Counted from the first letter of the stretch, positions 1-51,450 are shown. The stretch is 64,000 nt of DNA from Patescibacteria group bacterium (GCA_045541795.1 JAZQJV010000003.1:1623-65622); one strand, 5' to 3'. Translations and numbers: made by a program. Notes: generated by a model from the letters alone, not told the origin.

Positions 1-1154
1 ATAGTTTTTTACTGATGGATGATCCAGAGTACAAGCAGCAAAATATTGCACTAGCCAATAATAGTCCCAAGACAGCGCTGGCCGGAGCGACACCACGACT
101 GATAGACGAGTGGCAGTTGGCGCCAAAGTTGTGGGATGCGGTACGTTTTGAGGTAGATCAGCGTGGACTGCCGTCACAATTTATCCTGACTGGCTCAGCC
201 GTACCTTTTGATATGACAGCGGTAGATCACTCAGGCACAGGGAGGATTGCATCATTATTGATGCGGCCAATGAGCCTTTTTGAATCTGGAGATTCTAGCG
301 GCAGCGTGAGTCTATCTGGACTATTTGCACAACCAGAACAAATAACTGGCACGAGCGACCTAAATCTGGAAAGACTGGCTTTTCTCACGTGCCGTGGTGG
401 CTGGCCAAAAGCGGTGGATTATAACAGCAACAAGGCACTCACTTTAGCGAAAACCTACTATGAGGGTTTGATAGAAAACGATATTATGCGTGTAGACGGC
501 ATACGGCGTAGCCGCAATATCGCCAATCGGATCTTGCGATCTTATGCCCGTTTCCAGGCGCAGCAAGTATCGCTGGAAAACATCAGAAAAGACACTGCTG
601 CCGGAGACGGTACAAGCTTAGGTATTGATACAGTTTACGATTACGTGGAAGCATTGCGTAAACTTTTTATCATCGAGGACTCACCGGCATGGAACCCTAA
701 CTTACGCTCAAAGGCAGCAATCCGGACTTCCGACACTAGGTATTTTGTTGATCCGTCCATCGCCACACAGGCTCTAGGCGTAAGCCCCCGTGACCTGATC
801 CAAGATTTACGGACTTTTGGATTTTTGTTTGAGACACTTTGCATCCGTGATTTGCGAGTTTATGCCGATGTAAAGGGTAAAAGTGTAAGTCATTACCGCG
901 ACAGCAACGGACTCGAGTGTGACAGCGTGATTCATTCTCAAGACGGCGAGTACGGGCTTATAGAAATAAAACTCGGCTCTGATGACGAGTCAATTAATCA
1001 GGCTGTGAAAACATTGCACGATATGGAAAAGGTGATTGATGACGAGGTGATGAGCAAGCCGTCATTCCTGATGATTTTGGTGGGTAACGGGCCGTACGCC
1101 TATCGGCGCGAGGACGGGATTTATGTGGTGCCGGTGGGCTGTTTGCGGGAGTGA
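1..1154 (+). CDS. AAA+ ATPase, DUF4143 family; C-terminal part, 5' end cut by the window edge
   Basis: The ORF 15..1154 is open to the window start. The ILTGSAVPFDM...GRIASLLMRPMSLFE segment matches the AAA_14-DUF4143 linker. It is paralogous to the ORFs at 24870 and 50065. Confidence 0.6.
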   Translation, partial: SFLLMDDPEYKQQNIALANNSPKTALAGATPRLIDEWQLAPKLWDAVRFEVDQRGLPSQFILTGSAVPFDMTAVDHSGTGRIASLLMRPMSLFESGDSSGSVSLSGLFAQPEQITGTSDLNLERLAFLTCRGGWPKAVDYNSNKALTLAKTYYEGLIENDIMRVDGIRRSRNIANRILRSYARFQAQQVSLENIRKDTAAGDGTSLGIDTVYDYVEALRKLFIIEDSPAWNPNLRSKAAIRTSDTRYFVDPSIATQALGVSPRDLIQDLRTFGFLFETLCIRDLRVYADVKGKSVSHYRDSNGLECDSVIHSQDGEYGLIEIKLGSDDESINQAVKTLHDMEKVIDDEVMSKPSFLMILVGNGPYAYRREDGIYVVPVGCLRE

Positions 1155-1158
1155 ATAC

Positions 1159-2973
1159 TCACATCTCCCTTTTCGCCGCCACACCCAGGCAGGCAAGCGC
1201 ATCTACGAGTACCGTCTGCGTGGCGGTGGCCGCCGCCATCATCAAGCGAGAGTGAGCAGGATCGGCCGTATCCAAGAGCTTGCGCGGCTGGCTCCAGAGA
1301 GCGTGGAAAGCGGCGGCCAGCTCATACAGGTAAGTGACTAAGATATACGGCGCGCGCTCGCGCGCACTCAGAGCGATGACACCCGGATACCGGGCGAGCG
1401 CGCGAGCCAGCGGCCGCAGTACAGTGAGTTCATCACTATCAGTGATCAGGAGTGCCGTATCGGCGGCCTGAAACTGGTAATCCTCACCAAAGAGTTTGCG
1501 GTACTGGCGAGACAATGAATACGTGCGCGTGGCGGCATACTGGATGTAATAGACCGGATTGTCACGGGAGCGCTCACGCACACGCACCAGATCAAAGGTC
1601 ATCGGTGTGTTGGCAGACTTCGTGAGGATGAAAAGTTTGAGTTCGTCTACGTCTACCTGGGCGAGGACATCGCGCAAAAGTAAAAAGTTGCCGGCTCTTT
1701 TGGACATTTTGTACGGCTGACCATCGCGCTCGAGACTGACGAGTTGCATCAACTGGACTTCTAGATGAGTGCGGCCGGACGAGAGCGCACTCACGGCCGC
1801 CTGTAGGCGGGCGACATAGCCGCCGTGGTCGGCGCCAAAAAGATTAAGGAGGACGGGGTAGCCACGGTGGATTTTGTCAAAGTGGTAAGCGATGTCACTG
1901 GCAAAATAAGTGGTAGTGCCGTCTGAGCGCGCCACCACGCGGTCACGGTCATCGCCGTAAGCGGTGGAGCGGAAAATGGTCTGAAGGCCGTCATCATGGC
2001 GTGATTTTTCTTCCTCAGCTTCATTGGCGGGACCACCTAGCGGCGCTTGTAGCTCACCCTGATACAAACAGGGTAACTGCCTGGTGATGCCGTCTTCATC
2101 CGTGACGGGACACGTCTGGCTGGCCAGCTGAGCCAAGGCCTGGCGCACGCTCCCCTGCTCCACGAGTGCTGTCTCAGACGTAAAACGGTCAAATTCTAGG
2201 CCGAGCAGGGTAAGGTCGGCGCGGATCTGATCGAGCATAGAGGCGACAGCTTCATCCTTGAAACGGGCAAAAAAACTGTCTTCATCCAGATCTGCAAACT
2301 GGTCGCCATACTGATCGTGCCAGGCGGCGGCCAGCGGCAGCAAGTAGTCGCCCGGATAGCAGCCCTCAGGGACATTTTGGCCCTGGTGGCGGCCGCAAGC
2401 TTGCTGGTAGCGGAATTGCAGCGAGCGCAGCAGCGTGCGGATCTGCACGCCGTAGTCATTGACATAATACTCCGTGGTGACGCGGTAGCCGGCTTTGGTG
2501 AGCAAGCGCGCGAGCGCGAGACCCAAGACGGCGCCACGCGTGTGGCCGATATGCAAGGGGCCGGTGGGGTTGGCAGAGATGAATTCTAGTAAAATGTCTG
2601 CTGGGGCGGCCGGGTCAGCATCTGGCGGTGGGACGGCCGGCGCACCAAAACGGCGACCAGCAGTGATGACGCCGGCAAAGAAATCAGCCCAAGCGGCAGG
2701 CGTGAAGGAAATATTGACGTAAGCGCCGGCGGGCGCGGCCGACTGGACAAAAGGGAGCGCGGTAAATTTCTCCGCTAAGTCGGCAGCGATCGCCTGTGGC
2801 GGCCGGTGCAAAGCGCCGGCCAAAACCATAGCGGCATTGGTGGCGTAGTCAGCGTCTAGGTGTGCGGGTGGCAGCGAAAAGCGGAGCTTGCTGGCGACCG
2901 ACTGGAAGTCGTCGCCAGCAAAATTGGCGATGACGGCCGTAAGGTCCCTCTGGGCGCGGGCAAAAATATCCAT
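1159..2973 (-). CDS. argS: arginine--tRNA ligase
   Basis: 604 aa with HIGH motif (PLHIGHTRGAVLG), KMSK motif (KMSKRAGNF), and an anticodon-binding C-terminal domain. Confidence 0.9.
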   Translation of the reverse strand: MDIFARAQRDLTAVIANFAGDDFQSVASKLRFSLPPAHLDADYATNAAMVLAGALHRPPQAIAADLAEKFTALPFVQSAAPAGAYVNISFTPAAWADFFAGVITAGRRFGAPAVPPPDADPAAPADILLEFISANPTGPLHIGHTRGAVLGLALARLLTKAGYRVTTEYYVNDYGVQIRTLLRSLQFRYQQACGRHQGQNVPEGCYPGDYLLPLAAAWHDQYGDQFADLDEDSFFARFKDEAVASMLDQIRADLTLLGLEFDRFTSETALVEQGSVRQALAQLASQTCPVTDEDGITRQLPCLYQGELQAPLGGPANEAEEEKSRHDDGLQTIFRSTAYGDDRDRVVARSDGTTTYFASDIAYHFDKIHRGYPVLLNLFGADHGGYVARLQAAVSALSSGRTHLEVQLMQLVSLERDGQPYKMSKRAGNFLLLRDVLAQVDVDELKLFILTKSANTPMTFDLVRVRERSRDNPVYYIQYAATRTYSLSRQYRKLFGEDYQFQAADTALLITDSDELTVLRPLARALARYPGVIALSARERAPYILVTYLYELAAAFHALWSQPRKLLDTADPAHSRLMMAAATATQTVLVDALACLGVAAKREM

Positions 2974-2982
2974 AATGTATTA

Positions 2983-3011
2983 ATTATACCACAAAACGGC
3001 CCTTTTGTCAA
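2983..3011 (-). promoter_or_regulatory. sigma70-type promoter for argS (TTGACA-17-TATAAT, TGTGG extended -10), 9 nt upstream of the ATG
   Basis: Minus-strand TTGACAAAAGGGCCGTTTTGTGGTATAAT. Near-identical to the elements at 7669 and 8603. Confidence 0.5.
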
Positions 3012-3035
3012 GAGGTAATTTCCAGATAAAAAACG

Positions 3036-4202
3036 TTATAGGCTCAGCAGGCTGTCGCCGGAGGTGGCCACACAAAGTTCGCTGTAGAGCCGCTGGAGGC
3101 GGGCGTAGTCACCACGCTGCAGGTAGCGGCCATCCACAAAACGGTCGAGCTGGCCGGCCCAGGAACCAGATTGGACGTAATATTCGGTGTCATGTAGGGC
3201 CTGCCGGCCAGCGTGCACACTGGAGCGGTAATTTTGCCCGACCCGTTTGCCGGCCTTGAGGCCGTAACGGGTGGCGATACCGCCCACAAAAGGAATGCCG
3301 TAGGCGGCGGGCTGCAAGATGGTCTTTTTGTGATTGAGCTGGAGGCACAAGTGGAGCCGCAAAAACTCGTCGATGGCGTCTCGGGCGGCCAAAAGCCGGT
3401 CTTTGTCTGGATCAAGCAGGATCATGTCATCCACATAGCGGCCGTAATACTTGATGCCGAGCACATCTTTGACGAAATGATCGAGTTCTCCCAGATAGAT
3501 ATTGGAAAAAAGTTGACTGGTGAGATTGCCGATGGGGAAGCCGCGGTCGTCTGGGACGCCAAAAAGTGTCTTGTAGGCAGGCAAATCATCCCAGCCGTGG
3601 AGGTCGCCGCGCATACAGACACGGTAGGTAGGTCGAGCGAGGATGATAATGGGCAGGAGGTAGCGGAGCAAATCCATCATTTCTGGTTTGATCCTAGATT
3701 TGGGATCGGTGTACATCCGCTCGATGATCTGGAGCATTTTGCCGTGATGGATGCTAGTGAAATAGCTCTGGATGTCGAGCTTGAGCATCCAGGCGGGGCG
3801 GGTGAAATTGTGCGTCACTCGCCGCTGGAACTCCATGGCGCGCTCCATAGCAAAATGCGTGCCTTTGCCATGGCGGCAAGAGTAAGAATCAAAAATGAAA
3901 TGCCGCTCCCAGTAGGGATTGATGGCGTCAAAAACTAAGTGATGGACCACGCGATCACGGAAGGTGGCAGCAAAAACTTCGCGCTTTTTGGGCTCGGTGA
4001 CGATAAAGGCAATACTGGGCCCCAGCTCGTAAGTACGCGCAGCCAGATCGCGGTAGAGAGTGTAGAGATTGCGCTCGAGGTCAAGCTCAAAAAGGAGCTG
4101 ATTGGCGGTGGAGCGCTTATGGCGGCGAGCCTCAAAATAAGCAGTAAAAAGACGGTCAAAAATCCACTCCTGTTCTAATCCTACGGGATGGTGAACAATC
4201 AT
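3036..4202 (-). CDS. diversity-generating retroelement (DGR) reverse transcriptase
   Basis: 388 aa with RT motifs including YVDDMILL. The motif-4 region reads GFPIGNLTSQLFSNIYL, carrying the DGR-specific I/LGxxxSQ in place of QGxxxSP. A TR/VR pair lies immediately upstream on the same strand. Confidence 0.85.
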   Translation of the reverse strand: MIVHHPVGLEQEWIFDRLFTAYFEARRHKRSTANQLLFELDLERNLYTLYRDLAARTYELGPSIAFIVTEPKKREVFAATFRDRVVHHLVFDAINPYWERHFIFDSYSCRHGKGTHFAMERAMEFQRRVTHNFTRPAWMLKLDIQSYFTSIHHGKMLQIIERMYTDPKSRIKPEMMDLLRYLLPIIILARPTYRVCMRGDLHGWDDLPAYKTLFGVPDDRGFPIGNLTSQLFSNIYLGELDHFVKDVLGIKYYGRYVDDMILLDPDKDRLLAARDAIDEFLRLHLCLQLNHKKTILQPAAYGIPFVGGIATRYGLKAGKRVGQNYRSSVHAGRQALHDTEYYVQSGSWAGQLDRFVDGRYLQRGDYARLQRLYSELCVATSGDSLLSL

Positions 4203-5197
4203 TGGTTTTCGCTATCTGATTCGAATTGATGATCGGTTTTATTTTGCCAAGCGGCGAGGCTCTCATCCACCAGTACTTTGTATTTCATGAGCGTCGCCAG
4301 GTTTTCTGCCCGGAAAGCGCCGCATTCATACGCCAGGCGTAGGAGGAAAGAGACGGTGGCCATATCATCCTGGAGGTTGGAGAGATGCCGCCTGGAGACG
4401 TACCAAGTGTGATCTTGATCAGCGTCATACAGACAGCGGAAATTGTTTTCCATATCTATGATGAGCTGTAAGATAGTGGGTTGGAGCGAGGCTTTGTAAG
4501 CATGCTGGAAATGATTGGTACGGATGAAGGCTTCTTTGAGAAATTGGAAGAGGTAATTATACGTCTCCACGTTGGCATAGATAGGCCGGAGCTTGGCGAC
4601 GTTGGAGTCTTGAGCGATACATTCTTGGGCGTACCAGCGCTGGTAAGCTTTATTGTCTATGGGCGGCAGGCCTTTGAGGACGAGGCCATAGCAGTCTCCT
4701 TTTTTACCTTCGATCAGCTCCCAGGTGGCGTTATTATCAAGCGCACGCTCAAAAACGGCAGGCAGCGAGGCGACAGGAATACCTACACGCAGCAGGCGCT
4801 CGTCTTTTTGTGGCGGCTTGTCGCCGCGTACGGTAAGCCCCGGGCGCAGCAGCGTCAGCATCCGGTAAGCGCTGACATTATACGCATTGAGAAAATCACC
4901 AGTCGTCCAGAGGTAGACTTCGTTTTTGTTCATGGATTCTGCTTTGTAGATGTATTGGAGGTCGGCCGGGATGACTTTGACGTCGAGCACCGGGAGGGTC
5001 ACGCCCTTAGCGATCAGACGCTCGTACGCATCGCGGGCGGTTTTATTCACTGGGATTTTGGGGGATTTGGGATCCGGCGAGGAGGGAAAAGTGGAAGCCT
5101 TAGAGGCTTTATCTGGCATGACTATCCTTTCTATAATAATTCTTATGCCTAATTTGTTTACTAGAAGAATTGATAGCCGCCAGATGCGAGACGGCAA
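4199..5197 (-). CDS. hypothetical protein, candidate DGR accessory factor (not Avd-like in size)
   Basis: The 332-aa ORF overlaps the RT start by 4 nt (ATGA coupling) and sits between TR and RT. No recognisable family. The true start may be an internal Met (M27). Confidence 0.45.
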   Translation of the reverse strand: MPSRIWRLSILLVNKLGIRIIIERIVMPDKASKASTFPSSPDPKSPKIPVNKTARDAYERLIAKGVTLPVLDVKVIPADLQYIYKAESMNKNEVYLWTTGDFLNAYNVSAYRMLTLLRPGLTVRGDKPPQKDERLLRVGIPVASLPAVFERALDNNATWELIEGKKGDCYGLVLKGLPPIDNKAYQRWYAQECIAQDSNVAKLRPIYANVETYNYLFQFLKEAFIRTNHFQHAYKASLQPTILQLIIDMENNFRCLYDADQDHTWYVSRRHLSNLQDDMATVSFLLRLAYECGAFRAENLATLMKYKVLVDESLAAWQNKTDHQFESDSENQ

Positions 5198-5228
5198 CTA
5201 GATAAGGAGTGCGGGCAGAATTAAATGT

Positions 5229-5412
5229 GTCTTGGAGGCAGCGCACCGAAAACCCGTTGTACTTATTGTTGTTGTTCTGCGGGTAGATATTACTAGAATT
5301 CAAGTTCAGGTTGTACGCGTTCGTCGTTGAGTTAAGAGAGCTAGACCACCAGTTGGCGTTCGAGCCTTGATTGTTCAGCGAGGAACCATTGGCGTTGCCT
5401 GAGATAGCAGAC
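5229..5412 (-). repeat. DGR template repeat (TR)
   Basis: 184 bp, identical to 6236..6419 except 16 positions. Every one is T on the plus strand (A on the coding strand) in TR. It encodes the N-rich (AAC) version of the VR peptide. Confidence 0.85.
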
Positions 5413-6219
5413 AGACTCCGGGAAACCTGGGCGAGCCGCACGGCCCAGCCAGCCGAAATCCCAACAACCTGGTGCCAGCCGGGTACACGGCTATGCTGCA
5501 GTTGATCGCTCACCCACGGGGAAGCAAAAGAAGAAAAAGAAGAAAAGAGGCAGTGACAAGTACACAGACCAACAGCCCGTGTACACACTGGTGTGGACTT
5601 ACGCGCGGATGGCATCCACCCGAACTTGTAGCGCAAGTAGATCAATAGACTCAATCCTTCATGAGCCGGCGTCAGATAACCGCCAAAAGGTCGCAGTCGG
5701 CCAAGCCGACCAGCGAGCCCGGGCCCGACTACCCGCTCCTTACCTAGTTGTACCTCTAACTTAAAGAGCCACCCAGCTGGCGCAGCCAGCGGATCGGATA
5801 GACCACCCGCCAGCTCGGCTGGGTGCCGTCTCATAACCGCTCCAGTATAGCAGACATGCTGGCTCTTGTCAAGAGTGAATTGGGAGGAGCTGGTTTTTGA
5901 TATAGTTTGTATCATTTGTCCTTTTTTGGGCGCGGCCTGCGGCGCTTAGCGCCGCAGGCCATTGCCCTGCATCTTAGAGAGTAGAAAGTTTAGCGTTGGC
6001 TAGTAGTAGTTCCTTCAGGTGCCCTACCGGGAACCCTCGGGTGTCTGGGGCTGGCGCCAGATGGACGTCGCTGGGGCGGGCCGCAATGCGTGCGGCCGCC
6101 GGAGAGCTCCTATCTGGCCTGCCGCCAGGAGTTACCTGATCTAAAGTGTTTGGTGGTAAAGTTTTTTGTTCTTTCATATTTACTTTCTTAGTGATCTGTT
6201 TGATATAGTTTGCCATAAA

Positions 6220-7455
6220 TTAATAGTCTTGGAGGCAGCGCACCGAAAACCCGTAGTACTTAGCGTTGTTGTTCTGCGGGTAGATATTACTAGAACCCAA
6301 GCCCAGGTTGTACGCGCCCGTCGTTGAGTTAAGAGAGCTAGACCACCAGAAGGCGCCCGAGCCTTGATAGTACAGCGAGGAACCATGGGCGTTGCCTGAG
6401 ATAGCAGACTTCCCCGAGGCATTCCAAGCATTGGCGCCGCTAGTCCTAAACCAATTCCATGACGTAGCACAATCGCTACTCGTACAACCATGACTCACAC
6501 TACTTCCTTGGACCGCGTCGGCCAATGCTTGGAATTCTTCTTTGGTGGGTACATGCCAACCAATGGGACAAATATCATGGGTGGCTTCAGTAGTCCCATT
6601 GGTACGGTTATTATATGTACCATTGTAATTGGCAGTGGAATTATTCATCGCCGCCTGCCAGTTATAAAGGAAACCGTCATAGTTACCGCCGTCGGCAGCA
6701 TTACGGCAGATACCGTAGTAGCCGGAGGCGACTTTGTTTTGGACGGAGCCTTGGTAGCTAGCATTGAAATCATTACCCGTGAGGCTGGCACAATTGCCAA
6801 ATTGGAGGTTTTGAGCCATCCAGCAGTGACCATCTATAAATTTGCGGATGATGTATTGCTTATTGTCACGGGCATCGGTGAGCGTGCCCACGGTGGTGTA
6901 GCCAGTGCGCGATGTGGGCGTGGCAAATTGAGCACAGGCTGCCTTGGTAAAAGATTGCATGGTGGAACCGATACAAGTACACTGCTCGGTGGCACTATTA
7001 TAGATATAGGCATCCGAGCAGTCACAGCCCACACCATTGCCGATGCATTTACTAGTGGTGGCGTCCCAGGTGCTATTGTCGCCACAGTAATTGGAGCCGG
7101 TACACTGTTGGGTGTAGGCATTGGCAGAGGTGAAGCATTTGGCGTAGGCATTGGGATAGGTGACGCCGTCGGGGCAAGCGGTGGTGGCGGCAGACGTCCA
7201 GGTGTTATCGGCCGTGCGGATGAGTTTTAGTTGGCCGCCAGTGGCGATCACAGAGGCGAGGTCGGTATCAATGAGTTTGCGGGTGGTAGTGGTAGAAGAG
7301 GCAGCGTGGGCGGTGGGAATCAACCCCTCCCCTCTGGCACTGCGTGCCACCTCCCCTCCGTAAGGGGAGGAGTTATAAGAAGTGGGGGCTATGAGGGCTC
7401 GCCCCCCCCCAACGCATTTTGGGCCACCCCAAGGATGGCGGCAAGCACCAGACAA
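6220..7455 (-). CDS. DGR target (variable) protein; Cys-rich N-region plus C-terminal FISUMP/Fib_succ_major domain (C-type lectin fold)
   Basis: Motifs HCWMAQNL, FLYNWQAA, ICPIGWHVPT, WWSSS, GFSVRCLQDY. The VR covers the last ~60 codons. The ORF as called starts at a TTG. An ATG plus signal peptide lies upstream in another frame. Confidence 0.8.
   Translation of the reverse strand: MSGACRHPWGGPKCVGGGRALIAPTSYNSSPYGGEVARSARGEGLIPTAHAASSTTTTRKLIDTDLASVIATGGQLKLIRTADNTWTSAATTACPDGVTYPNAYAKCFTSANAYTQQCTGSNYCGDNSTWDATTSKCIGNGVGCDCSDAYIYNSATEQCTCIGSTMQSFTKAACAQFATPTSRTGYTTVGTLTDARDNKQYIIRKFIDGHCWMAQNLQFGNCASLTGNDFNASYQGSVQNKVASGYYGICRNAADGGNYDGFLYNWQAAMNNSTANYNGTYNNRTNGTTEATHDICPIGWHVPTKEEFQALADAVQGSSVSHGCTSSDCATSWNWFRTSGANAWNASGKSAISGNAHGSSLYYQGSGAFWWSSSLNSTTGAYNLGLGSSNIYPQNNNAKYYGFSVRCLQDY
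6236..6419 (-). repeat. DGR variable repeat (VR) at the 3' end of the target gene
   Basis: Aligned with TR 5229..5412. Differences are A->N only: H/N, YY/NN, GAF/NAN, G/N, G/N, A/N, Y/N. Confidence 0.85.
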
Positions 7456-7514: not shown

Positions 7515-7576
7515 ATGTTTTACCGCAATATGCGAGGCGGCTCTTCCTACTTTGTAACTATTTTAGATGTGAGATG

Positions 7577-7697: not shown

Positions 7698-7739
7698 GGG
7701 GTAAGTCCTTAGAGATTTGAGGACGGTTCTTATAAAAAT

Positions 7740-7858: not shown

Positions 7859-7922
7859 TGGAATTGGTCGATTTTTGCGTTTGGATATCTTTGACCCCAC
7901 CGGGTGAACCCAATTACGCCAG

Positions 7923-8004
7923 CGGAGGCGATGGGCTTCGAACCCACAAGCCCTGCTAGGGCGACGACTTATCGGATCGTGTGTCTTTCCAATGACAACG
8001 CCTC
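7923..8004 (-). tRNA. tRNA, class II-like (long variable arm); anticodon loop CCGATAA, identity unresolved
   Basis: Acceptor GGAGGCG/CGCCTCC plus discriminator G. D arm GTC-ATTGGAAA-GAC. T arm GTGGG-TTCGAAG-CCCAT. Variable stem CCCT/AGGG. Its own TATAAT lies about 30 nt upstream on the minus strand. Confidence 0.5.
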
Positions 8005-8088
8005 CGTGAGTCCACCCGATAAGGTAAAGATGATGTATTATATCATGGTTTGATGGCATTTTGACGGAGAAATGCCCCGCCCCCCCCT

Positions 8089-8716: not shown

Positions 8717-9106
8717 ATGCAGCGAGAAAAGAGAGGTAAAAAATCTGGTGGTTTAGTGTTGAGGAAACATGAGCAGTCAACGGTAGAGTTTTTGCAGGAA
8801 AAGGGTTTCAATTTGAAAGTGATACCTCCCAGTAACGTGACAGGAGTCAAAACTCCCGACCTTTTGATCTCTGGTATCCCATGGGAGATGAAATCCATTA
8901 CTAAGTCAAACACAAAGACAATCGAAAGAAGCTTTGGGCACGGACTCAAGCAAGCACCAAACTTGATATATGACTTGCGCAACCTCAAAACTGACGAAGC
9001 GGAGCAAGCAGTTAGGATATTGCAATGGTGCATAAAGAAGTTTCACCACGCGAAACAGCTCATGGTTATTACCAAAGATAGACAACTGCTCAAGTTGGAA
9101 AAGTGA
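8717..9106 (+). CDS. small PD-(D/E)xK-type nuclease-like protein (orphan)
   Basis: 129 aa. TPDLLISGIPWEMKS supplies a PD...ExK catalytic triad pattern. No partner gene is evident. Confidence 0.5.
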   Translation: MQREKRGKKSGGLVLRKHEQSTVEFLQEKGFNLKVIPPSNVTGVKTPDLLISGIPWEMKSITKSNTKTIERSFGHGLKQAPNLIYDLRNLKTDEAEQAVRILQWCIKKFHHAKQLMVITKDRQLLKLEK

Positions 9107-20605: not shown

Positions 20606-20617
20606 GGGAAGTTTCTG

Positions 20618-20648
20618 GTTTTTTCGTACTGACAGTGTGAGTACAAAG
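20618..20648. repeat. 31-bp repeat GTTTTTTCGTACTGACAGTGTGAGTACAAAG containing the 19-bp palindrome GTACTGACAGTGTGAGTAC, copy 1
   Basis: Second copy at 21352..21382. Together they bracket the mazF-like gene. Confidence 0.6.
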
Positions 20649-20735: not shown

Positions 20736-20755
20736 CCCCTGATGCGAGTCAGGGG
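20736..20755. terminator. hairpin CCCCTGA-tgcgag-TCAGGGG at the 3' end of the mazF-like gene
   Basis: 7-bp perfect stem, followed by tcaaattttgtc on the plus strand. Confidence 0.4.
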
Positions 20756-21162
20756 TCAAATTTTGTCTGGTAATACGACATGAATTTATCCTGCACAGTA
20801 TGTAGGTCAGTGTCGTCTATCCGTCCCAGACAGCTATACAAACGGAGAGTGCTTATAGTCCTCACTTGTAATAATGCTGCCCAGCTGGCCCGACCATGAA
20901 AATTAAACTTCACGTAAGAGCAAGTAGTTTTCTCCTGTGTCGTCAGCGGGATTACGGTACAGCTCAAGTTGTTATGCTTTTTATAAATTAGTACGGGGCG
21001 CGAGAACTTATTACTTTTGCCGTTCATTTCCACGCCGATGTTTTCACCCAGGGCACACCACCAGACTTCACCTTCATGGATTGTGGGATAATGCGGGTCG
21101 CGTGTCGCCAGCCGAGTTTTTAGCTCATACCATTGCTTTAATCTAATTTCCTTTTCTTGCAT
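20749..21162 (-). CDS. MazF/PemK-family endoribonuclease toxin-like protein, with no adjacent antitoxin ORF
   Basis: GEVWWCALGENIGVEMNGK...RPVLIY...TVIPLTTQEK follows the PemK pattern (GxIxxVxF...GxEQxGxRPxLVxS...PxTTQ). Confidence 0.55.
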   Translation of the reverse strand: MQEKEIRLKQWYELKTRLATRDPHYPTIHEGEVWWCALGENIGVEMNGKSNKFSRPVLIYKKHNNLSCTVIPLTTQEKTTCSYVKFNFHGRASWAALLQVRTISTLRLYSCLGRIDDTDLHTVQDKFMSYYQTKFDP

Positions 21163-21351
21163 TCCTCATATTATCTACACAATTCTTTCAAATTCTTTCA
21201 AATTTATGATAGATTTACGGGATTTTTTGGCAACGAAATAACGTAATTTTATGTATAAATCATGAAAAATTAGAACGGTATTTTATCGTGAGAATTGACG
21301 AGTTAAGCGCCGAAAGCGTGGCTGACAGCCGCCTATCCGTAAAGTTTCGTG

Positions 21352-21382
21352 TTTTTTTCGTACTGACAGTGTGAGTACAAAG
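21352..21382. repeat. 31-bp repeat containing the palindrome GTACTGACAGTGTGAGTAC, copy 2
   Basis: Identical to 20618..20648. Confidence 0.6.
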
Positions 21383-23748: not shown

Positions 23749-24489
23749 ATGAAAATAGTGACTTGGAACGTAAACGGTTGGCGGGCGATTTTGCGCAAAG
23801 GTTTTGCAGCGATTTATGACGAGCTGGACGCAGATATTTTGTTGATCCAGGAAACTAAGACTAATGTGCCGCTACCCGTGGGGTTGGACGGCGTGCGGGA
23901 GCAGTGGCAATGCGGGCAACGCGCCGGCTACTCGGGGACGCTAGCACTAGTGCGTGACGGGATAGCGTATAAGCGCCTCGAGCCGCCAGACTTACTGCAA
24001 GCTGAGGGGCGGACAGTCGGCTTAGAGCTGGATGATTTTTATTTGCTGGGCACGTACTTCCCCAATGGCGGACAGGGGCCGGTAAGACTGCAATACAAGA
24101 TGGATTTTTACGCGGCGTATCTGGAATATGTAAAAGATCTAGCAGTGAGTAAGCCGGTGATTTTTGCCGGCGACGTCAATACCGCCCACCGCGAGATTGA
24201 TCTGGCGCGGCCAAAAGAAAACCGCACACACACGGGGTTTTTACCAATGGAGTGTGCGTGGCTAGATGAGGTGGAGGCGGCAGGCTGGGTAGACGTCTGG
24301 CGAGCGTACCATCCTGAGCAAGCTGCATACAGCTGGTGGGATTACAAGACGAAGGCGCGCGAGCGAGATGTAGGCTGGCGGATAGATTATTTTTGGGCGA
24401 GCCAGGCGCTCATGAGCCGGGTGACAGCGTGTGAGATTTTGGCTGGAGTGATGGGCAGCGACCACGCGCCGGTGTTGCTGGAGATATAA
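23749..24489 (+). CDS. xth: exodeoxyribonuclease III / AP endonuclease
   Basis: MKIVTWNVNG..., the WRIDY region and the SDHAPV C-terminal motif. Confidence 0.85.
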   Translation: MKIVTWNVNGWRAILRKGFAAIYDELDADILLIQETKTNVPLPVGLDGVREQWQCGQRAGYSGTLALVRDGIAYKRLEPPDLLQAEGRTVGLELDDFYLLGTYFPNGGQGPVRLQYKMDFYAAYLEYVKDLAVSKPVIFAGDVNTAHREIDLARPKENRTHTGFLPMECAWLDEVEAAGWVDVWRAYHPEQAAYSWWDYKTKARERDVGWRIDYFWASQALMSRVTACEILAGVMGSDHAPVLLEI

Positions 24490-24770
24490 AAGTGGCGATA
24501 ATTGCCAGTGAAAAGGCTTTTTGCTAGCAAAAGTGGGAAAAATTGGGGAGTTTTGCTAGTGGAAGAGGGGTTTTGTTGGCAAAAAAGGCCCGTTAGCAGC
24601 AACTGCCGACGGGCCAGGTTTTCTTTCACTTGCCGGTAAACTTACCAAACGCCATCTTGAGCCAGGAGAAATTCCAGGGCTGATGAAGCTTGTCAAGAGC
24701 CCATTTTTCTCCCTTTCGGCACCCCATAATACCTCCGGTTTACCAAAAATTGTAACTAGAACCGTTTTCC

Positions 24771-24832
24771 GTTTACAAAAGTAGGTAAAAATAGTAAGTT
24801 TTGTAAATAGAAATGGAATTTGGTTACAAAAA
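24771..24832 (+). repeat. 62-bp direct repeat, copy 1 (GTTTACAAAAGTAGGTAAAAATAGTAAGTTTTGTAAATAGAAATGGAATTTGGTTACAAAAA)
   Basis: Exact second copy at 26106..26167. The pair flanks the AAA ATPase gene and its promoter. Confidence 0.7.
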
Positions 24833-24833: not shown

Positions 24834-24862
24834 TTGACATTTTCCCGCGGCCGTGTTATAAT
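24834..24862 (+). promoter_or_regulatory. promoter TTGACA-17-TATAAT for the AAA ATPase gene (leaderless, 7 nt to ATG)
   Basis: cTTGACAttttcccgcggccgtgtTATAATtacatatATG. Confidence 0.55.
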
Positions 24863-24869: not shown

Positions 24870-26090
24870 ATGAAAATAATTGAAAGACATTATTTGCGTG
24901 AGCTACTAGCGGTACTGCATACTCCCGATATTAAAGTGATTACTGGCGTGCGGCGGGCGGGTAAATCCACGCTTTTGCAACAGTTGACTGAGCACATTAT
25001 CCACAATATCCCTCAGAGTAACTTGATCCATATCAACTATAATCTTCACGATTTTTATCATTTGCGCGACCACGAGTCAGCGTATGCGTATATCAGCGAG
25101 CGTCTGCGGCCCAGCCTGGAAAATTACGTATTGATTGATGAAGTACAGATGTGTGACGGCTTTGAGTGGGTGATTAACAGCTTACATGCTAGCGGCAGGT
25201 GTCACATCGTGATCACAGGCTCAAATGCCTTTCTTGAACACACTGATTTAGGCACGCTTTTTGTGGGGCGGATTTATTCTCTCCAGATGTACCCGTTTTC
25301 TTTTCGTGAATATTGCCGGTATTTTCCTCGCCTTTATATTGATGATGCTTGGGATCGATATTTGCGTGATGGCGGCTTTGCTGGTAGCTATGAGTATCCA
25401 AATAGTGAGCAAAAAAGTACTTATGTCCGTGATGTTTTCCGGACGTTAATTGTCCGTGACATCGTGGGAAAATATAAAATCAAAGATGAAGCAATGTTGC
25501 AACAACTGATTGACTTTTTAGCCGACAATATCGGCAATATCACCTCCGCCAATAAGATTGCCAACGTTTTGAATGCCTCTGGAGTGGATACCAATCACAA
25601 TACCGTCAACGCCTACCTAGACTATTTGTGCCGGAGTTTTGCCTTTTACCGGGTGCGCCGGTATGACATCAAGGGTAAGGATTATCTGCGCTCTCAAGAC
25701 AAATATTACCTAGTAGATCCAAGTTTTCGCACAGCGCGTCTAGGTAATCGTTTCCCAGATTATGGATTGGTTTTTGAAAACATCGTCGCGATAGAACTTC
25801 TGCGGCGCGGCTGGGAGTTATATGTGGGTGTGGTCAGCAGCAAAGATCTGGAAATAGATTTTGTGGCCAGAAAGGCTGACCGCGAGCTTTATATCCAAGT
25901 AAGCGATGATATATCTCGAGACGAGACGCTAAATCGGGAACTGAGTTCGCTACAAGCCGTAAAGAATAACCACCCGAAGATCATTTTGGCCCGGACGAGG
26001 GCAGACGCTGGCACGAGAGACGGCATTATCATTGCCGATCTGGCGCGCACACTCGCCAATCCCCATGCCTTTGATGAGCTAAAATTGTAA
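24870..26090 (+). CDS. AAA+ ATPase, DUF4143 family
   Basis: Walker A GVRRAGKST, Walker B VLIDEVQ, then ITGS...LGTLFVGRIYSLQMYPFSFRE (DUF4143). The ORF 24813 is trimmed to MKIIERH. Confidence 0.75.
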   Translation: MKIIERHYLRELLAVLHTPDIKVITGVRRAGKSTLLQQLTEHIIHNIPQSNLIHINYNLHDFYHLRDHESAYAYISERLRPSLENYVLIDEVQMCDGFEWVINSLHASGRCHIVITGSNAFLEHTDLGTLFVGRIYSLQMYPFSFREYCRYFPRLYIDDAWDRYLRDGGFAGSYEYPNSEQKSTYVRDVFRTLIVRDIVGKYKIKDEAMLQQLIDFLADNIGNITSANKIANVLNASGVDTNHNTVNAYLDYLCRSFAFYRVRRYDIKGKDYLRSQDKYYLVDPSFRTARLGNRFPDYGLVFENIVAIELLRRGWELYVGVVSSKDLEIDFVARKADRELYIQVSDDISRDETLNRELSSLQAVKNNHPKIILARTRADAGTRDGIIIADLARTLANPHAFDELKL

Positions 26091-26105
26091 ACAAAGACGA
26101 TTTTT

Positions 26106-26167
26106 GTTTACAAAAGTAGGTAAAAATAGTAAGTTTTGTAAATAGAAATGGAATTTGGTTACAAAAA
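26106..26167 (+). repeat. 62-bp direct repeat, copy 2
   Basis: Identical to 24771..24832. Confidence 0.7.
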
Positions 26168-26168: not shown

Positions 26169-26194
26169 GGGGGTCTTGCTTGGACAAGACCCCC
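26169..26194. terminator. bidirectional hairpin GGGGGTCTTG-cttgga-CAAGACCCCC between the ATPase gene and ytxH-like
   Basis: 10-bp perfect stem. On the minus strand it is followed by CATTTTTGT. Confidence 0.5.
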
Positions 26195-26219: not shown

Positions 26220-26657
26220 TTAATCGATGGACTGGGCGAGCTTGCGCCATTGGGAATTGAGGTAGCGCTTGATTTTTTCCAGATCATCATCCTCATAGCG
26301 GTTGAAGGATTGGAGTTTTTCTACGACGTTGTCTACCATTTCTTGATAGGCTTTTTTGTCGATTTTATCCAAAGATTTTTCAAAGGTGTGGACTTGTTGC
26401 TCCCAGAGCTTGCGAGCGTCTTCATAAAGGGACGTGGTAATAGCAGAAACCTCACCAAAAATATCATACACTCGGTCAGCGATCGCTTCGCGCTCGGCAT
26501 CGAGGTAATCGTTAAATTCTTCCCATTTGTCACTCAGCAGACGGCGATTGGCCCGGCCAGAGCGCGGCGAAAGAAAAAACATTGCTGTAGCGCCGGCAAT
26601 ACCACCCAAAGCTAAACCCGCAAGAGCTGGCCAAAATCCACTTTGTCTTTCACTCAT
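26220..26657 (-). CDS. YtxH-domain protein
   Basis: The N-terminus GFWPALAGLALGGIAGATAMFFLSPRSGRANRRLL matches the YtxH glycine-zipper segment. Confidence 0.55.
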   Translation of the reverse strand: MSERQSGFWPALAGLALGGIAGATAMFFLSPRSGRANRRLLSDKWEEFNDYLDAEREAIADRVYDIFGEVSAITTSLYEDARKLWEQQVHTFEKSLDKIDKKAYQEMVDNVVEKLQSFNRYEDDDLEKIKRYLNSQWRKLAQSID

Positions 26658-43856: not shown

Positions 43857-44059
43857 TCATTTTAACACGTCAGCGTCCATTTTGCAACACCATTTTGGGG
43901 CAATTTCCGCCTGGTAGGCAAACTGGCCTACAAGTAAATTGTAAGTTACAATGTGAGTGACATTTTAAGTTTTTTTTGCTACCGTACTACTTTGTCCAAA
44001 TCATTCTTCACTAGTGCACACCGTTTCCGAATACAATTTCTTGTGGTATAATCGGGCGT

Positions 44060-45421: not shown

Positions 45422-45428
45422 TCTTTTT

Positions 45429-45475
45429 CCTTCCCTATATAGGGAAGGGGGACCAACTCGTGAGAGTTGGTGGAA
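45429..45475. terminator. two consecutive hairpins (CCTTCCCTATATAGGGAAGG and ACCAACTC-gtga-GAGTTGGT)
   Basis: Perfect palindromes between the GT-C-like gene stop and the DUF559 gene start. Confidence 0.35.
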
Positions 45476-45483
45476 AGGTACCA

Positions 45484-45906
45484 ATGATTGTTTACGACTA
45501 TACTCGAAATAAATCAAGCCTTCTCTATCACAGGAAAGCACTACGTCATCATTCAACTGTATGCGAATGTTTATTGTGGAGAAAATTAAAAGGAAGACAA
45601 TTACATGGTTACAAATTTCGAAGGCAGTACAGTTTAGAAAATTGCATATTTGACTTTTACTGTCCACAATTAAAACTGGCTATTGAACTTGATGGAGCTC
45701 CGCACTTTTTTAAGGAAAAATACATTCAGGATCGCAAACGCGATGCTTATTTTCTCAGTAATTATAATATAAGTACTCTCAGGTATGAAAATTGGCAAAT
45801 ATTAAGCGAAATAGACATCGTCATTAATGATATCTACAAACACATTCAGTTGATTGAATGTACCTCTCCACCGTCCGCAAGCGGACTGTCCCCCTCTCCT
45901 ATGTAG
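45484..45906 (+). CDS. DUF559 (Vsr-like endonuclease fold) domain protein
   Basis: CECLLWRKLKGRQLHGYKFRRQY...IFDFYCPQLKLAIELDGAPHF...DRKRDAYFLSNYNISTLRY matches the DUF559 pattern. The C-terminal residues are encoded by a hairpin region. Confidence 0.55.
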   Translation: MIVYDYTRNKSSLLYHRKALRHHSTVCECLLWRKLKGRQLHGYKFRRQYSLENCIFDFYCPQLKLAIELDGAPHFFKEKYIQDRKRDAYFLSNYNISTLRYENWQILSEIDIVINDIYKHIQLIECTSPPSASGLSPSPM

Positions 45907-45939
45907 GAGAGGATAGGATTACGTTTTATCGTTTTTCTG

Positions 45940-45966
45940 CTGGCAAAAACCCCGCCAAGGCGGGGT
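45940..45966. terminator. intrinsic terminator (A-tract, CCCCGCC-aa-GGCGGGG, T-rich) serving the minus-strand gene 45987..46619
   Basis: ggcaaaaaCCCCGCCaaGGCGGGGtaaaacattt. Confidence 0.4.
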
Positions 45967-45986
45967 AAAACATTTCGTCTTACAAA

Positions 45987-46619
45987 TTACTGCGTGATTT
46001 CGGGAGCGACAGGCTTTTCAGCGACGCTGTCGTCACTGTGAGTGCCGTTTGCTCGGGCAGTGGGCGTTCTTCGCCGGCGCGGCAGCTCTACCATATAGTA
46101 GCTGCGCGGCTGGATAATCCACGCCAAAAGAAACAGCCCAGCGATCACAAAAAATGACAGCATTGAGATGTCTGGGATCATAACAGCAAGTACACTGCCG
46201 TCTTCTCCCAGCTTGATTTTGCAGTTGAGTAGGAAGAAGAACCAAATCCCGTGTGCCAAGACCTTCAAAACTAATGCGCCCAGATCCAGGACATCGCACC
46301 AAAAAATATGCGACGTGAGATAGACCCGCTCCACGTGGTGGCGGGAAAGCGCATAGGTGATGATACCGAGTGCCAGCAAACTGATCGCTGTCAGCTGTAA
46401 ATGCAGCGTCGGCACGCCAGCGAAGAAATTGACGATGAAGAAGATTTCACCATCTTGCACGCAGGCATCCAGCGCTAGCAAGCTCGCAACAAACCAGATA
46501 ACTGCCAACGTAAGCCGAGATAACAGACACATTAAACCTTTGAAACAATAAACCATTATAACGCAACTCCTTTGTGAGTGATTTTTGGCCGCAGCACGAG
46601 TAAAAAGACAAAATGTCAA
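45987..46619 (-). CDS. hypothetical membrane protein (start uncertain)
   Basis: Several TM helices (WFVASLLALDA, LLALGIITYAL, VIAGLFLLAWII) and a basic C-terminal tail. Confidence 0.4.
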   Translation of the reverse strand: MTFCLFTRAAAKNHSQRSCVIMVYCFKGLMCLLSRLTLAVIWFVASLLALDACVQDGEIFFIVNFFAGVPTLHLQLTAISLLALGIITYALSRHHVERVYLTSHIFWCDVLDLGALVLKVLAHGIWFFFLLNCKIKLGEDGSVLAVMIPDISMLSFFVIAGLFLLAWIIQPRSYYMVELPRRRRTPTARANGTHSDDSVAEKPVAPEITQ

Positions 46620-46713
46620 AGAACTCGGTCCGCAGACCGTACCGCCAGCCGTTTGCTTTCAAAACGGTAGCAATATAGTGTTTATTATATCATTAATCAG
46701 TGCTTTTGTCAAG

Positions 46714-48264: not shown

Positions 48265-48346
48265 GTTTACTTTCTATTATAATATACAGTTTTCTAGGTC
48301 TGCTTTTGACGTTTGTCTGGAGTAGTGTCTACTATAATACACATTT

Positions 48347-49816
<1,470 letters not shown>

Positions 49817-49930
49817 CTATGCGCCTTATTATAACATGGAAATGGGGCGTGTGGAGTAGGAAAATGAAGGCGGGTGAAAATCACGTTTTGGCCGATTCCT
49901 CTCCCCGCCCCACCCGAAGTTATAGTCCTT

Positions 49931-50025
49931 GGTGGAGGTGGCGGCGTGGGCGGCAGGAATCACCCCCTCCTCTCTGGTACTGCGTGCCTCCTCCCCTTTG
50001 TAAGGGGAGGAGTTATGTGAGGATT
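49931..50025 (-). repeat. ~95-bp diverged copy of the 5' coding region of the DGR target gene (7281..7384), including the stem-loop CCTCCCCT..GTAAGGGGAGG
   Basis: About 85% nt identity. Its translation NSSPYKGEEARSTREEGVIPAAHAATST aligns with NSSPYGGEVARSARGEGLIPTAHAASST of the target. Confidence 0.5.
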
Positions 50026-50064
50026 TGTCAATGGAGGGAAAGTGTCTAGTGACAGTGAACAGTT

Positions 50065-51261
50065 TTACGGCCGGCGCAACCAAGCAAGAGCATTTTCTAC
50101 ATTGATGCCGTCTTGCTGACCGTAAATATCTAAATCAAGTGTGAGGACAGTACGAGAGAAACCGTCACGAAGCGACAAGAGTGGCGCAAATTCCCGTTCA
50201 CGTGTAGCGTCGTCCTGCAAACTGTAAGCCACTTGAAAATACGCCACATCTCCAGCGCCAGAAATGGTGACAAAATCAATCTCGGCGTGGGAAGTTTTAC
50301 CCACATATACTTGTCGATAGCGCCGGCGCAGTTCCAAGTAGACGATGTTTTCGAGGATCCGGCCACGATCAGCGAGACGACGGCCTTGACTGAAGTAACG
50401 AAGGCCGGGATCGACAACGTAATACTTCTCGCCAGTACAAAGTAGCTGACGGCCAGCCACGTCATAGCGAGGCGCGGCATAAAAAATGTAGGCTTCCTGG
50501 AGAGCATGCAAGTAACGATCAAGGGTTTTTGTGGAGACTTCCACCCCATCATGCCGGAGCATACTGGTGATTTTATTGAGCGAGCAGAGATTGCCGACAT
50601 TATCCATCAAAAAATCAATGACTCGCAAAAGGAGGCGAATATCCCGGAACTGATACCGAGCGACGATGTCTTTGAGTACGATACTATCCAAAATACCAAA
50701 GATATAGTCAGAAACTTCGTCTGGCTCGGTAAGATTGATGACATAAGGGAATGATCCAAAGGTGACATAGCGATGATAAAGTTTGTAATCATTGATCGGT
50801 TCTTTTTGCGCGGTAGCAAACTCACTAAATGAAAGCGGCAAAAGCTTAATCTCGATATAGCGGCCAGATAATTTAGTGGCCAGTTCACCAGAAAGCATTA
50901 CCGCATTGGAGCCTGTCAGATAAATATCAATATTTTTGTCCAAATAGAGACTACTGATGCATCTTTCCCACTGAGGAATATTTTGGATCTCATCAAGCAG
51001 AAGATAAGTACGACGCCTGGGGACAAGACGATCAGTAAGATATTGATAAAGCAGGCGATCGTCAAAATCGCGAAATTCATGAGACTCGAGGTTGAGATGA
51101 ATTATGCGATCAAACGGGACGCCAGAGGCGGCAAGTTTTTGAGCAAAAAGTTCAAGGAGTGTAGATTTACCGCAACGACGTACGCCGGTAACCACTTTGA
51201 TGACATCGCGGTCGCGCCATTTTTGGAGTTTTTGTAGTTGCTTTTGCCTCATGACTGACAT
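50065..51261 (-). CDS. AAA+ ATPase, DUF4143 family
   Basis: Walker A GVRRCGKST, Walker B LLLDEIQ, DUF4143 segment LTGSNAVMLSGELATKLSGRYIEIKLLPLSFSEF. Trimmed to MSVMRQ, which is leaderless behind TTGACA-17-TATAAT. Confidence 0.75.
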   Translation of the reverse strand: MSVMRQKQLQKLQKWRDRDVIKVVTGVRRCGKSTLLELFAQKLAASGVPFDRIIHLNLESHEFRDFDDRLLYQYLTDRLVPRRRTYLLLDEIQNIPQWERCISSLYLDKNIDIYLTGSNAVMLSGELATKLSGRYIEIKLLPLSFSEFATAQKEPINDYKLYHRYVTFGSFPYVINLTEPDEVSDYIFGILDSIVLKDIVARYQFRDIRLLLRVIDFLMDNVGNLCSLNKITSMLRHDGVEVSTKTLDRYLHALQEAYIFYAAPRYDVAGRQLLCTGEKYYVVDPGLRYFSQGRRLADRGRILENIVYLELRRRYRQVYVGKTSHAEIDFVTISGAGDVAYFQVAYSLQDDATREREFAPLLSLRDGFSRTVLTLDLDIYGQQDGINVENALAWLRRP

Positions 51262-51269
51262 GAGGGCGA

Positions 51270-51298
51270 TTATAGCACGACTGAGGCTTGTTGTCAAG
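51270..51298 (-). promoter_or_regulatory. promoter TTGACA-17-TATAAT, 7 nt upstream of the ATPase ATG
   Basis: Minus strand TTGACAacaagcctcagtcgtgcTATAATcgccctcATG. Confidence 0.5.
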
Positions 51299-51307
51299 TA
51301 TTTTGTA

Positions 51308-51450
51308 GAGTATAAGTACTAAAAAATGAAAATTTGATAAAAGTTGGGAGTATAAGTATGAAAAATTTTCCAAGTGTACCAGATGAAAAAAAGTTAGGAG
51401 TATAAGTATGAAAAATGTAAGATTTTGTGATTTTGTGGAGTATAAGTACT
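51308..51450. repeat. array of four GGAGTATAAGTA(C/T)(T/G)AAAAAT-type direct repeats (at 51308, 51348, 51398, 51438) in the divergent ATPase/valS intergenic region
   Basis: Read directly. Spacing is 40, 50 and 40 bp. Confidence 0.5.

Follow-up and report, generated by a model that had tools for sequence, protein, structure and literature searches.

A candidate operator brackets a PDC-S01 defense-candidate gene and may delimit a mobile single-gene cassette in a Patescibacteria genome

Introduction

Are the long direct repeats on either side of a single gene the trace of its insertion into the host, or do they belong to the gene itself? This question is raised by a stretch of 64,000 nucleotides (nt) from a Patescibacteria group bacterium (GCA_045541795.1, JAZQJV010000003.1:1623-65622; "the window" below means this whole stretch), in which one of three genes for AAA+ ATPases of the DUF4143 type, here called copy 2, sits in a 1.33-kb segment between two 62-mers at 24771-24832 and 26106-26167. 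The genes belong to PDC-S01, in which an ATPase is fused to a PD-(D/E)xK domain (PMC12988326, PMC3424549). PDC-S01 is reported to rank fourth in frequency among defense candidates across prokaryotes, with validation of phage defense pending (PMC12988326), and to be the single locus seen most often in rumen genomes (PMC12988326, PMC13356809).

An earlier note on this DNA, made from the sequence alone, proposed that a gene cassette had been inserted by site-specific or repeat-mediated means. We find that the repeats are copies of an element, R, that moves with the gene, and the segment 24746-26167 is most likely a self-contained, horizontally mobile single-gene PDC-S01 cassette with the order R, consensus promoter, gene, R. 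The positions of all features of the locus are collected in Table 1.

Results

The repeat is a dyad element beside the copy 2 promoter

Copy 2 and its promoter do lie between identical 62-mers (62/62), as had been noted, and the true length of the repeat is 87 nt. Over these 87 nt the two copies, R1 and R2, are 91% identical. Four half-sites can be recognized in R1 (TTGTAAC, GTTTACAAAA, TTTTGTAAA, and GTTACAAAAA), and each 87-nt copy folds as one extended imperfect hairpin (z = -2.9 for R1 and -5.6 for R2). The inner hairpin has the pattern NNNNCAAAA-N17/18-TTTTGNNNN, with arms that covary.

The 62-mer is not scattered over unrelated loci. No other match was found in the window when 3 mismatches were allowed (0 expected in shuffles), and the arm pattern gave 0 matches in the JGI metagenomes and 0 in IMG/VR. 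Hairpin pattern sites occur in the window at R1, R2, and a solitary diverged copy, R0, alone, and on the contig of the closest homolog (L001, described below) at the two flanks of the gene alone, indicating that the element is not a generic promoter feature. The possibility that CAAAA/TTTTG palindromes are common to promoters of this genome was rejected on the same grounds.

The copy 2 promoter follows R1 directly, and the ATG lies 8 nt downstream of the -10 box, so that the mRNA is probably leaderless. Two other identities were considered for the repeat region and rejected. Rfam has no family for R as a known RNA, the only match being a chance one (E = 0.23). We also took the DNA to the left of R1 for a possible 3' end of a second ATPase gene since deleted; the AAAATTGTAA found there belongs to R as its outermost half-site and occurs in R0 as ATAATTGCCA, and the adjoining DNA is the promoter region of a gene for a 200-amino-acid (aa) membrane protein.

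The element travels with the gene family

The closest homolog of copy 2 (P0002; 64% identity) is encoded on L001, an unrelated 18-kb contig, where it is likewise flanked by direct repeats of the R architecture (71% alike); the downstream copy there comes with a copy of the promoter, which drives the next gene. We then drew 80 relative loci (46 to 54% identity) from a genome collection, mostly from gut Clostridia and Bacilli with a few Saccharibacteria. Nearly all of them have a palindrome that ends ~27 to 32 nt before the ATG, typically TCTATTACGCAAAA-N13-21-TTTTGCGTAATAGA or TATTTCCCAAAA-N15-TTTTGGGAAATA, and the A/T-rich loop often holds TTGAC, that is, the -35 box. Arms of at least 9 bp were present upstream of the gene in 53 of 69 clade loci, compared with 52 of the 331 intergenic regions that lie upstream of other genes at the same loci (Fisher P = 9e-23). 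Distant family members also had an upstream palindrome, again often with TTGAC in the loop, in 16 of 42 cases (38%, versus 2.6% of random windows). Within 8 kb on either side, the palindrome arms recur only directly beside the gene, and the saccharibacterial members carry two tandem palindromes, i.e., four half-sites, as does R in the window.

R thus moves between hosts together with the gene. The view of the 62-mer as an insertion-target sequence or target-site duplication does not hold, since the dyad belongs to the gene: repeats of this architecture flank the L001 ortholog, and the palindrome stands upstream of the gene in 53 of the 69 loci.

A second copy downstream is less common. The two flanks share a significant direct repeat at 12 of the 69 loci and a nonpalindromic inverted repeat at essentially 1 locus, and in ~10 of the former the downstream repeat is the palindrome itself, so that about 15% of all loci have a second direct copy. 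Such copies were found in L008, L026, L027, L028, L032/L066, L050, L001, and the window. This downstream copy starts 5 to 16 nt after the stop codon and is 91 to 100% identical to the upstream one; the duplicated stretch varies in length from 37 to 90 nt among loci, and on the right it always ends where the last half-site has its outer limit, immediately ahead of the -10 or -35 box. The arms are identical between the copies in L026, L027, L028, and L032, and the loops have diverged, which suggests selection on the arms and therefore a second functional site.

A different arrangement was seen at L013, where the ATPase gene is directly followed by an inverted repetition of its upstream region (192 nt, 99% identical; sites at 6088-6130 and 7361-7401), with several paralogous surface-protein genes nearby. 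It is either a rearrangement or an assembly problem.

Arm sequence follows one residue of the winged helix

The sequence of the palindrome arms tracks a single residue of the protein, position 242 in copy 2 numbering, where the third (recognition) helix of the winged helix starts. Asp occupies this position at every locus with ...CGCA arms, and all loci with ...CCCA or ...CCCT arms have His or Asn; the window and L001, with arms ...ACAAAA and ...GCAAAA, have N-H-N/T-T at the start of the recognition helix. The Asp/CGCA state occurs in at least three separate places in a neighbor-joining (NJ) tree. Such a pattern would be expected if the recognition helix read the bases directly, and we infer from it that R may be the protein's own operator or binding site. 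It also predicts a specificity swap, in which a change of Asp242 to His would shift recognition from CGCA to CCCA.

A related haplotype has a single copy of the element and no gene

The check proposed by the earlier note, a relative with a single 62-mer at an empty site, could be made with L090, a 1,160-nt metagenomic scaffold with an N10 gap that carries a YtxH homolog 99% identical to that of the window. Part A of this scaffold holds the 3' end of the ATPase gene and 13 nt of the 62-mer and is 100% identical to the window. Part B has no ATPase gene and reads, in order, the promoter of the 200-aa gene, the left flank of R1, one 62-mer (62/62), and the sequence to the right of R2, with the terminator and the YtxH gene, at 96.5 to 97% identity to the window. 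The two parts point to two strains rather than to an artifact, part A being identical to the window and the flanks in part B differing from it by ~3.5%. The cassette insertion proposed earlier is partly upheld: L090 part B argues for a discrete mobile cassette, and the 62-mer turns out to be the gene's own rather than derived from the target.

As R is part of the cassette, the simplest reading of a solitary R is the footprint of a loss or a landing pad for reentry. R0 is probably an older footprint of cassette loss; it stands at the same place in L082 and L083, with arms that have partly decayed there.

The left side of the locus records a separate event. Homology between the window and L082/L083 runs through R0 and the terminator-like hairpin and stops at ~24701, after which L082 has an intact, convergent gene for the 200-aa protein. 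The motif TTGTCAAGA occurs inside this gene in L082 and at the -35 region of its promoter in L090 part B. The window lacks the DNA between these two copies of TTGTCAAGA, the result of a microhomology deletion that removed the 200-aa gene. We considered ~24701 as the insertion junction of the cassette and rejected it; the break is the TTGTCAAGA deletion, unrelated to the cassette. The relatives of the YtxH gene on L087/L088 and L089/L091 were uninformative, as homology stops at the stop codon, with an insertion sequence-type transposase next, or the contig ends. On L087, an rve-family transposase (1423-2382) lies directly downstream of the YtxH gene.

Cassettes of the family move between species

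Pairwise comparison of the loci, with one genome per species, revealed cassettes that are 95 to 99% identical over 1.3 to 1.5 kb in different species of gut Clostridia and Bacilli and lie in unrelated flanks. The limits of homology fall 54 to 243 nt upstream and 2 to 120 nt downstream of the gene. In one group (L038, L040, L043, L045, and L022), a 12-bp direct repeat, AAATTACAATTT, forms the boundary (seen in L038, L043, and L045). In another (L029, L035, L037, L047, and L052), the left boundary is a tmRNA or tRNA-Thr gene's 3' end and the right one a tRNA-3'-like sequence (seen in L029, L037, L047, and L052). No integrase is present within the homologous segment of either group. Near-identical cassettes with unrelated flanks and varied boundary repeats indicate a real unit of horizontal transfer with more than one way in.

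Relatives were also found on 248 plasmids, 175 of these from Acinetobacter. IMG/VR contained no confirmed relative of copy 2 and phage records gave only 19 weak matches, and a phage origin is not supported. Pfam detected no integrase or transposase among the open reading frames (ORFs) of the window that were scanned (most but not all). The sole tRNA gene of the window (7922-8005) is not beside the copy 2 cassette.

The window has a second cassette-like unit. Direct repeats of 33 nt at 20616-20648 and 21350-21382 (97% identical, with a palindromic core, GTACTGACAGTGTGAGTAC) bracket a PemK/MazF-like toxin gene (20749-21162, - strand). As the neighboring genes overlap without intervening DNA in the relative L084, this unit is a second cassette-like insertion of ~800 nt.

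The protein combines an initiator-type ATPase with a nuclease-like domain

The AlphaFold (AF2) model of copy 2 has a predicted local distance difference test score (pLDDT) of 85 and a predicted template modeling score (pTM) of 0.80. It consists of an AAA+ domain (residues 1 to 150), a helical lid, a winged helix (207 to 281), and an alpha/beta PD-(D/E)xK-like domain (298 to 375). The top PDB matches in Foldseek were archaeal Orc1/Cdc6 proteins on origin DNA (2v1u_A and 2qby_A/B; E = 2e-6 to 1e-5 over ~380 aligned columns), followed by ORC, DnaA, RFC, and STAND proteins. The model places copy 2, at the level of fold only, with the initiator-clade AAA+ proteins that have a lid and a winged helix. 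A sequence search of the PDB with copy 2 returned zero matches at E <= 1, and no Cdc6/ORC family is among the Pfam matches of the window.

Modeled separately (pLDDT 83), the C-terminal domain matched Bax1, McrC, Hjc, and NucS (E from 7e-4, template modeling score 0.4 to 0.5), all of which are PD-(D/E)xK nucleases. Residues E309, D330, and Q343 are invariant. Given that the third nuclease motif is Q-V-S instead of ExK, nuclease activity of the modeled domain is plausible but not certain.

Copy 2 has two ancient paralogs in the window

Pfam supports the assignment of all three ORFs (1-1154, 24870-26090, and 50065-51261) as DUF4143 AAA+ proteins, each scoring above the gathering cutoffs for AAA_14 (27 bits) and DUF4143 (28.1 bits): 102.9 and 69.9 bits for copy 2, 122.5 and 65.1 bits for copy 3, and 31.8 (partial) and 104.1 bits (E = 8e-30) for copy 1. 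The PDC-S01 hidden Markov models (HMMs) of PADLOC matched copy 2 (1.8e-134, PDLC04787), copy 3 (2.4e-146, PDLC04787), and copy 1 (1.8e-53), the best model of copy 1 being PDLC04790, i.e., a subfamily other than that of copies 2 and 3. NCBIfam has no model for any of the three. The association with defense suspected earlier fits these matches, and the family, then described as of unknown function, has a name as a defense candidate and is still unvalidated (PMC12988326).

Copies 2 and 3 are 34% identical, and copy 1 shares 25% and 22% identity with copies 2 and 3, respectively. With identities this low the paralogs are ancient, and their number is not a sign of recent multiplication. Relatives of copy 3 in the metagenome scan were all at most 38% identical. 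The fourfold array that had been noticed beside copy 3 is present (GAGTATAAGTA at 51308, 51348, 51398, and 51438). It lies upstream of the -35 box of copy 3, whose promoter is at 51269-51297 (- strand), and of a divergent tRNA-synthetase promoter, and the repeats may be candidate cognate sites of copy 3. On the other side of copy 3, the 87 nt at 49930-50016 repeat, with 86% identity, the 5' part (7290-7376) of the target gene of a diversity-generating retroelement (DGR).

This DGR consists of a reverse transcriptase gene (3036-4202, - strand), a template repeat (5229-5412), and a variable repeat (6226-6409) inside the Fib_succ_major target gene (6220-7455). Copy 1 was said to be two genes away from it; copy 1 and the reverse transcriptase gene are separated by a single gene, for arginyl-tRNA synthetase (1159-2973).

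Paralogs also occur side by side in another genome, where L051 has two diverged PDC-S01 genes (1552-2757 and 4770-5942) at most 3 kb apart, the second bracketed by 61-nt perfect direct repeats that are situated outside its palindrome.

Other features of the window

The chromosomal origin (dnaA-dnaN) region is found elsewhere in the window, at ~59.5 to 62.9 kb, with dnaN (59503-60618, + strand), an rpmH-like ORF (~60661-60800), and dnaA (61254-62888, - strand). Five GTACTCACA boxes lie at 61141-61221, and the same type of box occurs in the repeats around the MazF-like gene. ORFs of conflict or mobility type encode a CdiA_C toxin domain (8717-9106), a DUF559 endonuclease-like protein (45460-45906), and a TraG-like ATPase (62898-63920). 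Five TTTGCTGCAA repeats with ~25-nt spacing (54540-54660) lie in a 377-nt intergenic region, and there are further local arrays of short repeats in intergenic DNA, e.g., at 43857-43960.

Table 1. Positions of the copy 2 locus, its repeat elements, and its paralogs in the window
Feature	Position	Strand	Remarks
Copy 1	1..1154	+	PDC-S01 paralog cut off by left window edge; retains only last half of AAA_14
Exodeoxyribonuclease III gene	23749..24489	+	Left synteny anchor; Pfam Exo_endo_phos; 87%-identical homologs on L082, L083
R0	24498..24584	+	Solitary diverged R copy, 63% identical to R1; inner arms: left CTAGCAAAA, right TTTTGCTAG
G+C-rich terminator-like hairpin	24587..24615	.	Between exonuclease III gene and gene remnant; kept in L082
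3' remnant of 200-aa membrane-protein gene	24627..24698	-	~22 codons, ...LDKLHQPWNFSWLKMAFGKFTGK*; gene intact in L082/L083
TTGTCAAGA microhomology	24690..24698	.	Deletion junction; 3' end of gene fused to its own promoter -35 region
R1	24746..24832	+	87-nt dyad element; contains perfect 62-mer 24771-24832; inner arms: left TTTACAAAA, right TTTTGTAAA
Copy 2 promoter	24834..24862	+	TTGACA-17-TGTTATAAT (TATAAT), upstream TG; 12/12 consensus positions; directly after R1
Copy 2	24870..26090	+	PDC-S01 protein; predicted AAA+, winged helix, PD-(D/E)xK-like domain
R2	26081..26167	+	Second element copy; contains perfect 62-mer 26106-26167; starts within copy 2 stop codon (AAAATTGTAA); inner arms as R1
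YtxH-gene intrinsic terminator	26169..26194	-	Convergent gene; abuts R2 directly
YtxH-like gene	26220..26657	-	Right synteny anchor; Pfam YtxH; homologs 99%, 97%, 86% identical
Copy 3	50065..51261	-	PDC-S01 paralog; same PADLOC subfamily as copy 2
GAGTATAAGTA array	51308..51448	.	Four direct repeats; spacings 40, 50, 40 nt
L001 element			Inner arms: left CTTGCAAAA, right TTTTGCAAG

Discussion

How the cassette may be gained and lost

We favor, at a probability of roughly 0.55, an autoregulated cassette bracketed by its own operator, which is lost or gained by recombination between the operator copies. The protein would bind R next to its own gene and thereby autoregulate its promoter, and the downstream R would be another operator, whose match to the first is maintained by selection. 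Recombination between the direct copies of R would excise the gene precisely and leave a solitary R, and in the reverse reaction a circular R-gene unit would insert at a solitary R. With an identical stretch of 62 nt, host homologous recombination is the likeliest agent.

Several observations weigh against this explanation. The inner palindrome of the window and L001 stands ~60 nt upstream of the ATG and not around the -35 box, a geometry unlike that of the Bacillota-type loci. The correlation between arms and residue involves ~3 independent transitions in an unsupported NJ tree, and shared ancestry could explain part of it, which is why we put R forward as an operator with reserve. Catalytic activity is uncertain, as the nuclease motif departs from the usual form (D330...Q343-V-S, Lys being absent at +2). 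L090 is short, its N10 gap joins an ATPase-bearing piece to an empty-site piece, and its 62-nt repeat may have been misresolved; an integrated R-gene-R and a solitary R plus a free circular cassette would give the same assembly graph. The two haplotypes are compatible with insertion and loss alike. Finally, other cassettes of the clade are bounded by AAATTACAATTT or by tRNA/tmRNA 3' ends, so that recombination between copies of R is not the sole route.

The main rival, which we regard as unlikely, is that R is a dedicated site-specific recombination site, used either as a folded single strand in the manner of an integron attC or as a duplex cut by the ATPase-nuclease that the cassette encodes or by a trans-acting recombinase. 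In that case the three elements R0, R1, and R2 would mark off a short array of cassettes, the 200-aa gene followed by the ATPase gene, and the arrangement is suggestive in that the 200-aa gene lies between R0 and R in the empty-site strain as reconstructed, just as R1 and R2 bracket the ATPase gene in the window. The extended imperfect hairpin formed by each 87-nt copy would suit an attC-like site, but the attC cores RYYYAAC / GTTRRRY are not matched by R and not conserved in R0 or L001, and the cassette has a strong promoter of its own, unlike integron cassettes. The identity of R1 and R2 jumps from 8/15 to 62/62 at one point, and the duplicated stretch always ends on the right at the outer limit of the last half-site, both of which speak for such a site; yet the majority of orthologous loci carry just the upstream copy, next to the promoter, which is a better fit to an operator, and other cassettes of the clade have different boundary repeats. 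The PD-(D/E)xK fold predicted for the protein, related to Hjc and McrC, also favors this rival, whereas no integrase or transposase was seen among the window ORFs scanned.

A more far-reaching idea, to which we give little credence, is that PDC-S01 cassettes are autonomous minimal mobile elements, instead of or besides being defense genes: the winged helix would recognize the flanking dyads, and the AAA+ motor together with the Hjc/McrC-like nuclease would excise and reinsert the 1.3-kb unit or replicate its circle. If so, they would represent a previously undescribed single-protein recombination system, and the view of the fourth most common "defense system" would change.

It is also improbable that the bracketed arrangement is an effect of assembly, with a solitary R in the chromosome and the cassette circular or elsewhere, or with L090 part B arising from a collapsed repeat. 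Some circumstances invite this suspicion: the window is one metagenome-assembled contig, the repeat of 62 nt is near common assembler k-mer sizes, exact window proteins (copy 2 in both start variants, the YtxH protein, and exonuclease III) were found on no other indexed contig, and L090 is a gapped scaffold of 1,160 nt whose part A ends 13 nt into the 62-mer. The junctions, however, were seen independently, that of the ATPase 3' end with R in part A (100%) and those of the left flank with R and of R with the terminator in part B, and the ~3.5% divergence of the part B flanks beside an identical part A fits two strains better. Moreover, the order operator-promoter-gene is conserved in at least 50 orthologs, and ~10 genomes assembled independently of one another, circular HiFi assemblies (e.g., L026) among them, have downstream direct copies.

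A long target-site duplication from a transposition-type insertion into host sequence can be dismissed as very improbable, because the direct repeats, although exactly at both ends of a single-gene segment, are specific to the gene family and not to a host site (their design recurs around the L001 ortholog and upstream of 53 of 69 orthologs in other phyla), vary in length from 37 to 90 nt among loci, and are accompanied by no terminal inverted repeats and by no transposase among the window ORFs scanned.

What the locus adds to the PDC-S01 family

From this analysis the family gains a candidate DNA ligand, namely a dyad that is carried with the gene and whose arms track one winged-helix residue. 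It also gains a predicted architecture, in which a winged helix stands between an AAA+ domain like that of Orc1/Cdc6 and a nuclease domain, as well as evidence of a discrete moving unit, a 1.3- to 1.5-kb cassette with direct repeats, one natural filled/empty pair, and near-identical copies across species. The protein may serve in defense or act as a selfish gene. If it acts on its own flanking sites, survey counts of this "defense system" would partly count a selfish element.

Comparison with known systems

The three ATPase ORFs of the window agree with PDC-S01 as described (AAA_14 plus DUF4143; COG1373) in their HMM matches and in the pair of ATPase and PD-(D/E)xK domains. In the papers found on DUF4143, PDC-S01, and COG1373, the system is a bare single gene of unknown mechanism, and no conserved dyad element, arm-residue covariation, repeat-bracketed cassette, or filled/empty polymorphism is described.

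Arrays of integron cassettes, such as those with the VCR sites of Vibrio, are similar in that single genes are separated by direct-oriented imperfect palindromes of 60 to 140 nt and in that a cassette is present or absent, leaving one site; the 87 nt of R fall within the palindrome range of attC cassettes (57 to 141 nt). The window differs from them in having no integron integrase among the ORFs scanned and in lacking the attC cores, from which the outer arms of R (TTGTAAC / GTTACAA) deviate; neither R0 nor L001 retains them. It further differs in the 12/12 promoter within the cassette, in the presence of the element both upstream and downstream, and in the covariation of the element with the encoded protein.

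Integrase-less islets with att repeats at tRNA or tmRNA genes are cis-mobilizable elements. The cassettes of L029, L037, L047, and L052 resemble them, being located directly after a tmRNA or tRNA-Thr gene and ending with a tRNA-3'-like repeat, whereas the window cassette is not at a tRNA gene and its repeat is operator-like and not a tRNA end.

With archaeal Orc1/Cdc6, for which 2v1u and 2qby are the best structural matches over the AAA+ domain, lid, and winged helix, copy 2 also shares inverted repeats around an A/T-rich spacer directly upstream of the protein's own gene. It differs from Orc1/Cdc6 in having no sequence-level relationship and an extra C-terminal nuclease domain, as predicted by the model. 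The site is far smaller (arms of 9 to 14 bp and a spacer of 13 to 21 nt) and overlaps the promoter, and there is no indication of a replication role for the PDC-S01 site.

Lastly, McrBC likewise combines an AAA+ motor with a PD-(D/E)xK nuclease, and McrC is among the fold matches of copy 2. Autoregulated toxin or abortive-infection modules offer another parallel, as the palindrome embraces the -35 box in the way known from self-repressed toxic genes. In contrast to both, PDC-S01 has no conserved partner gene and fuses all of these parts, with a predicted initiator-type AAA+ domain and winged helix, in one polypeptide.

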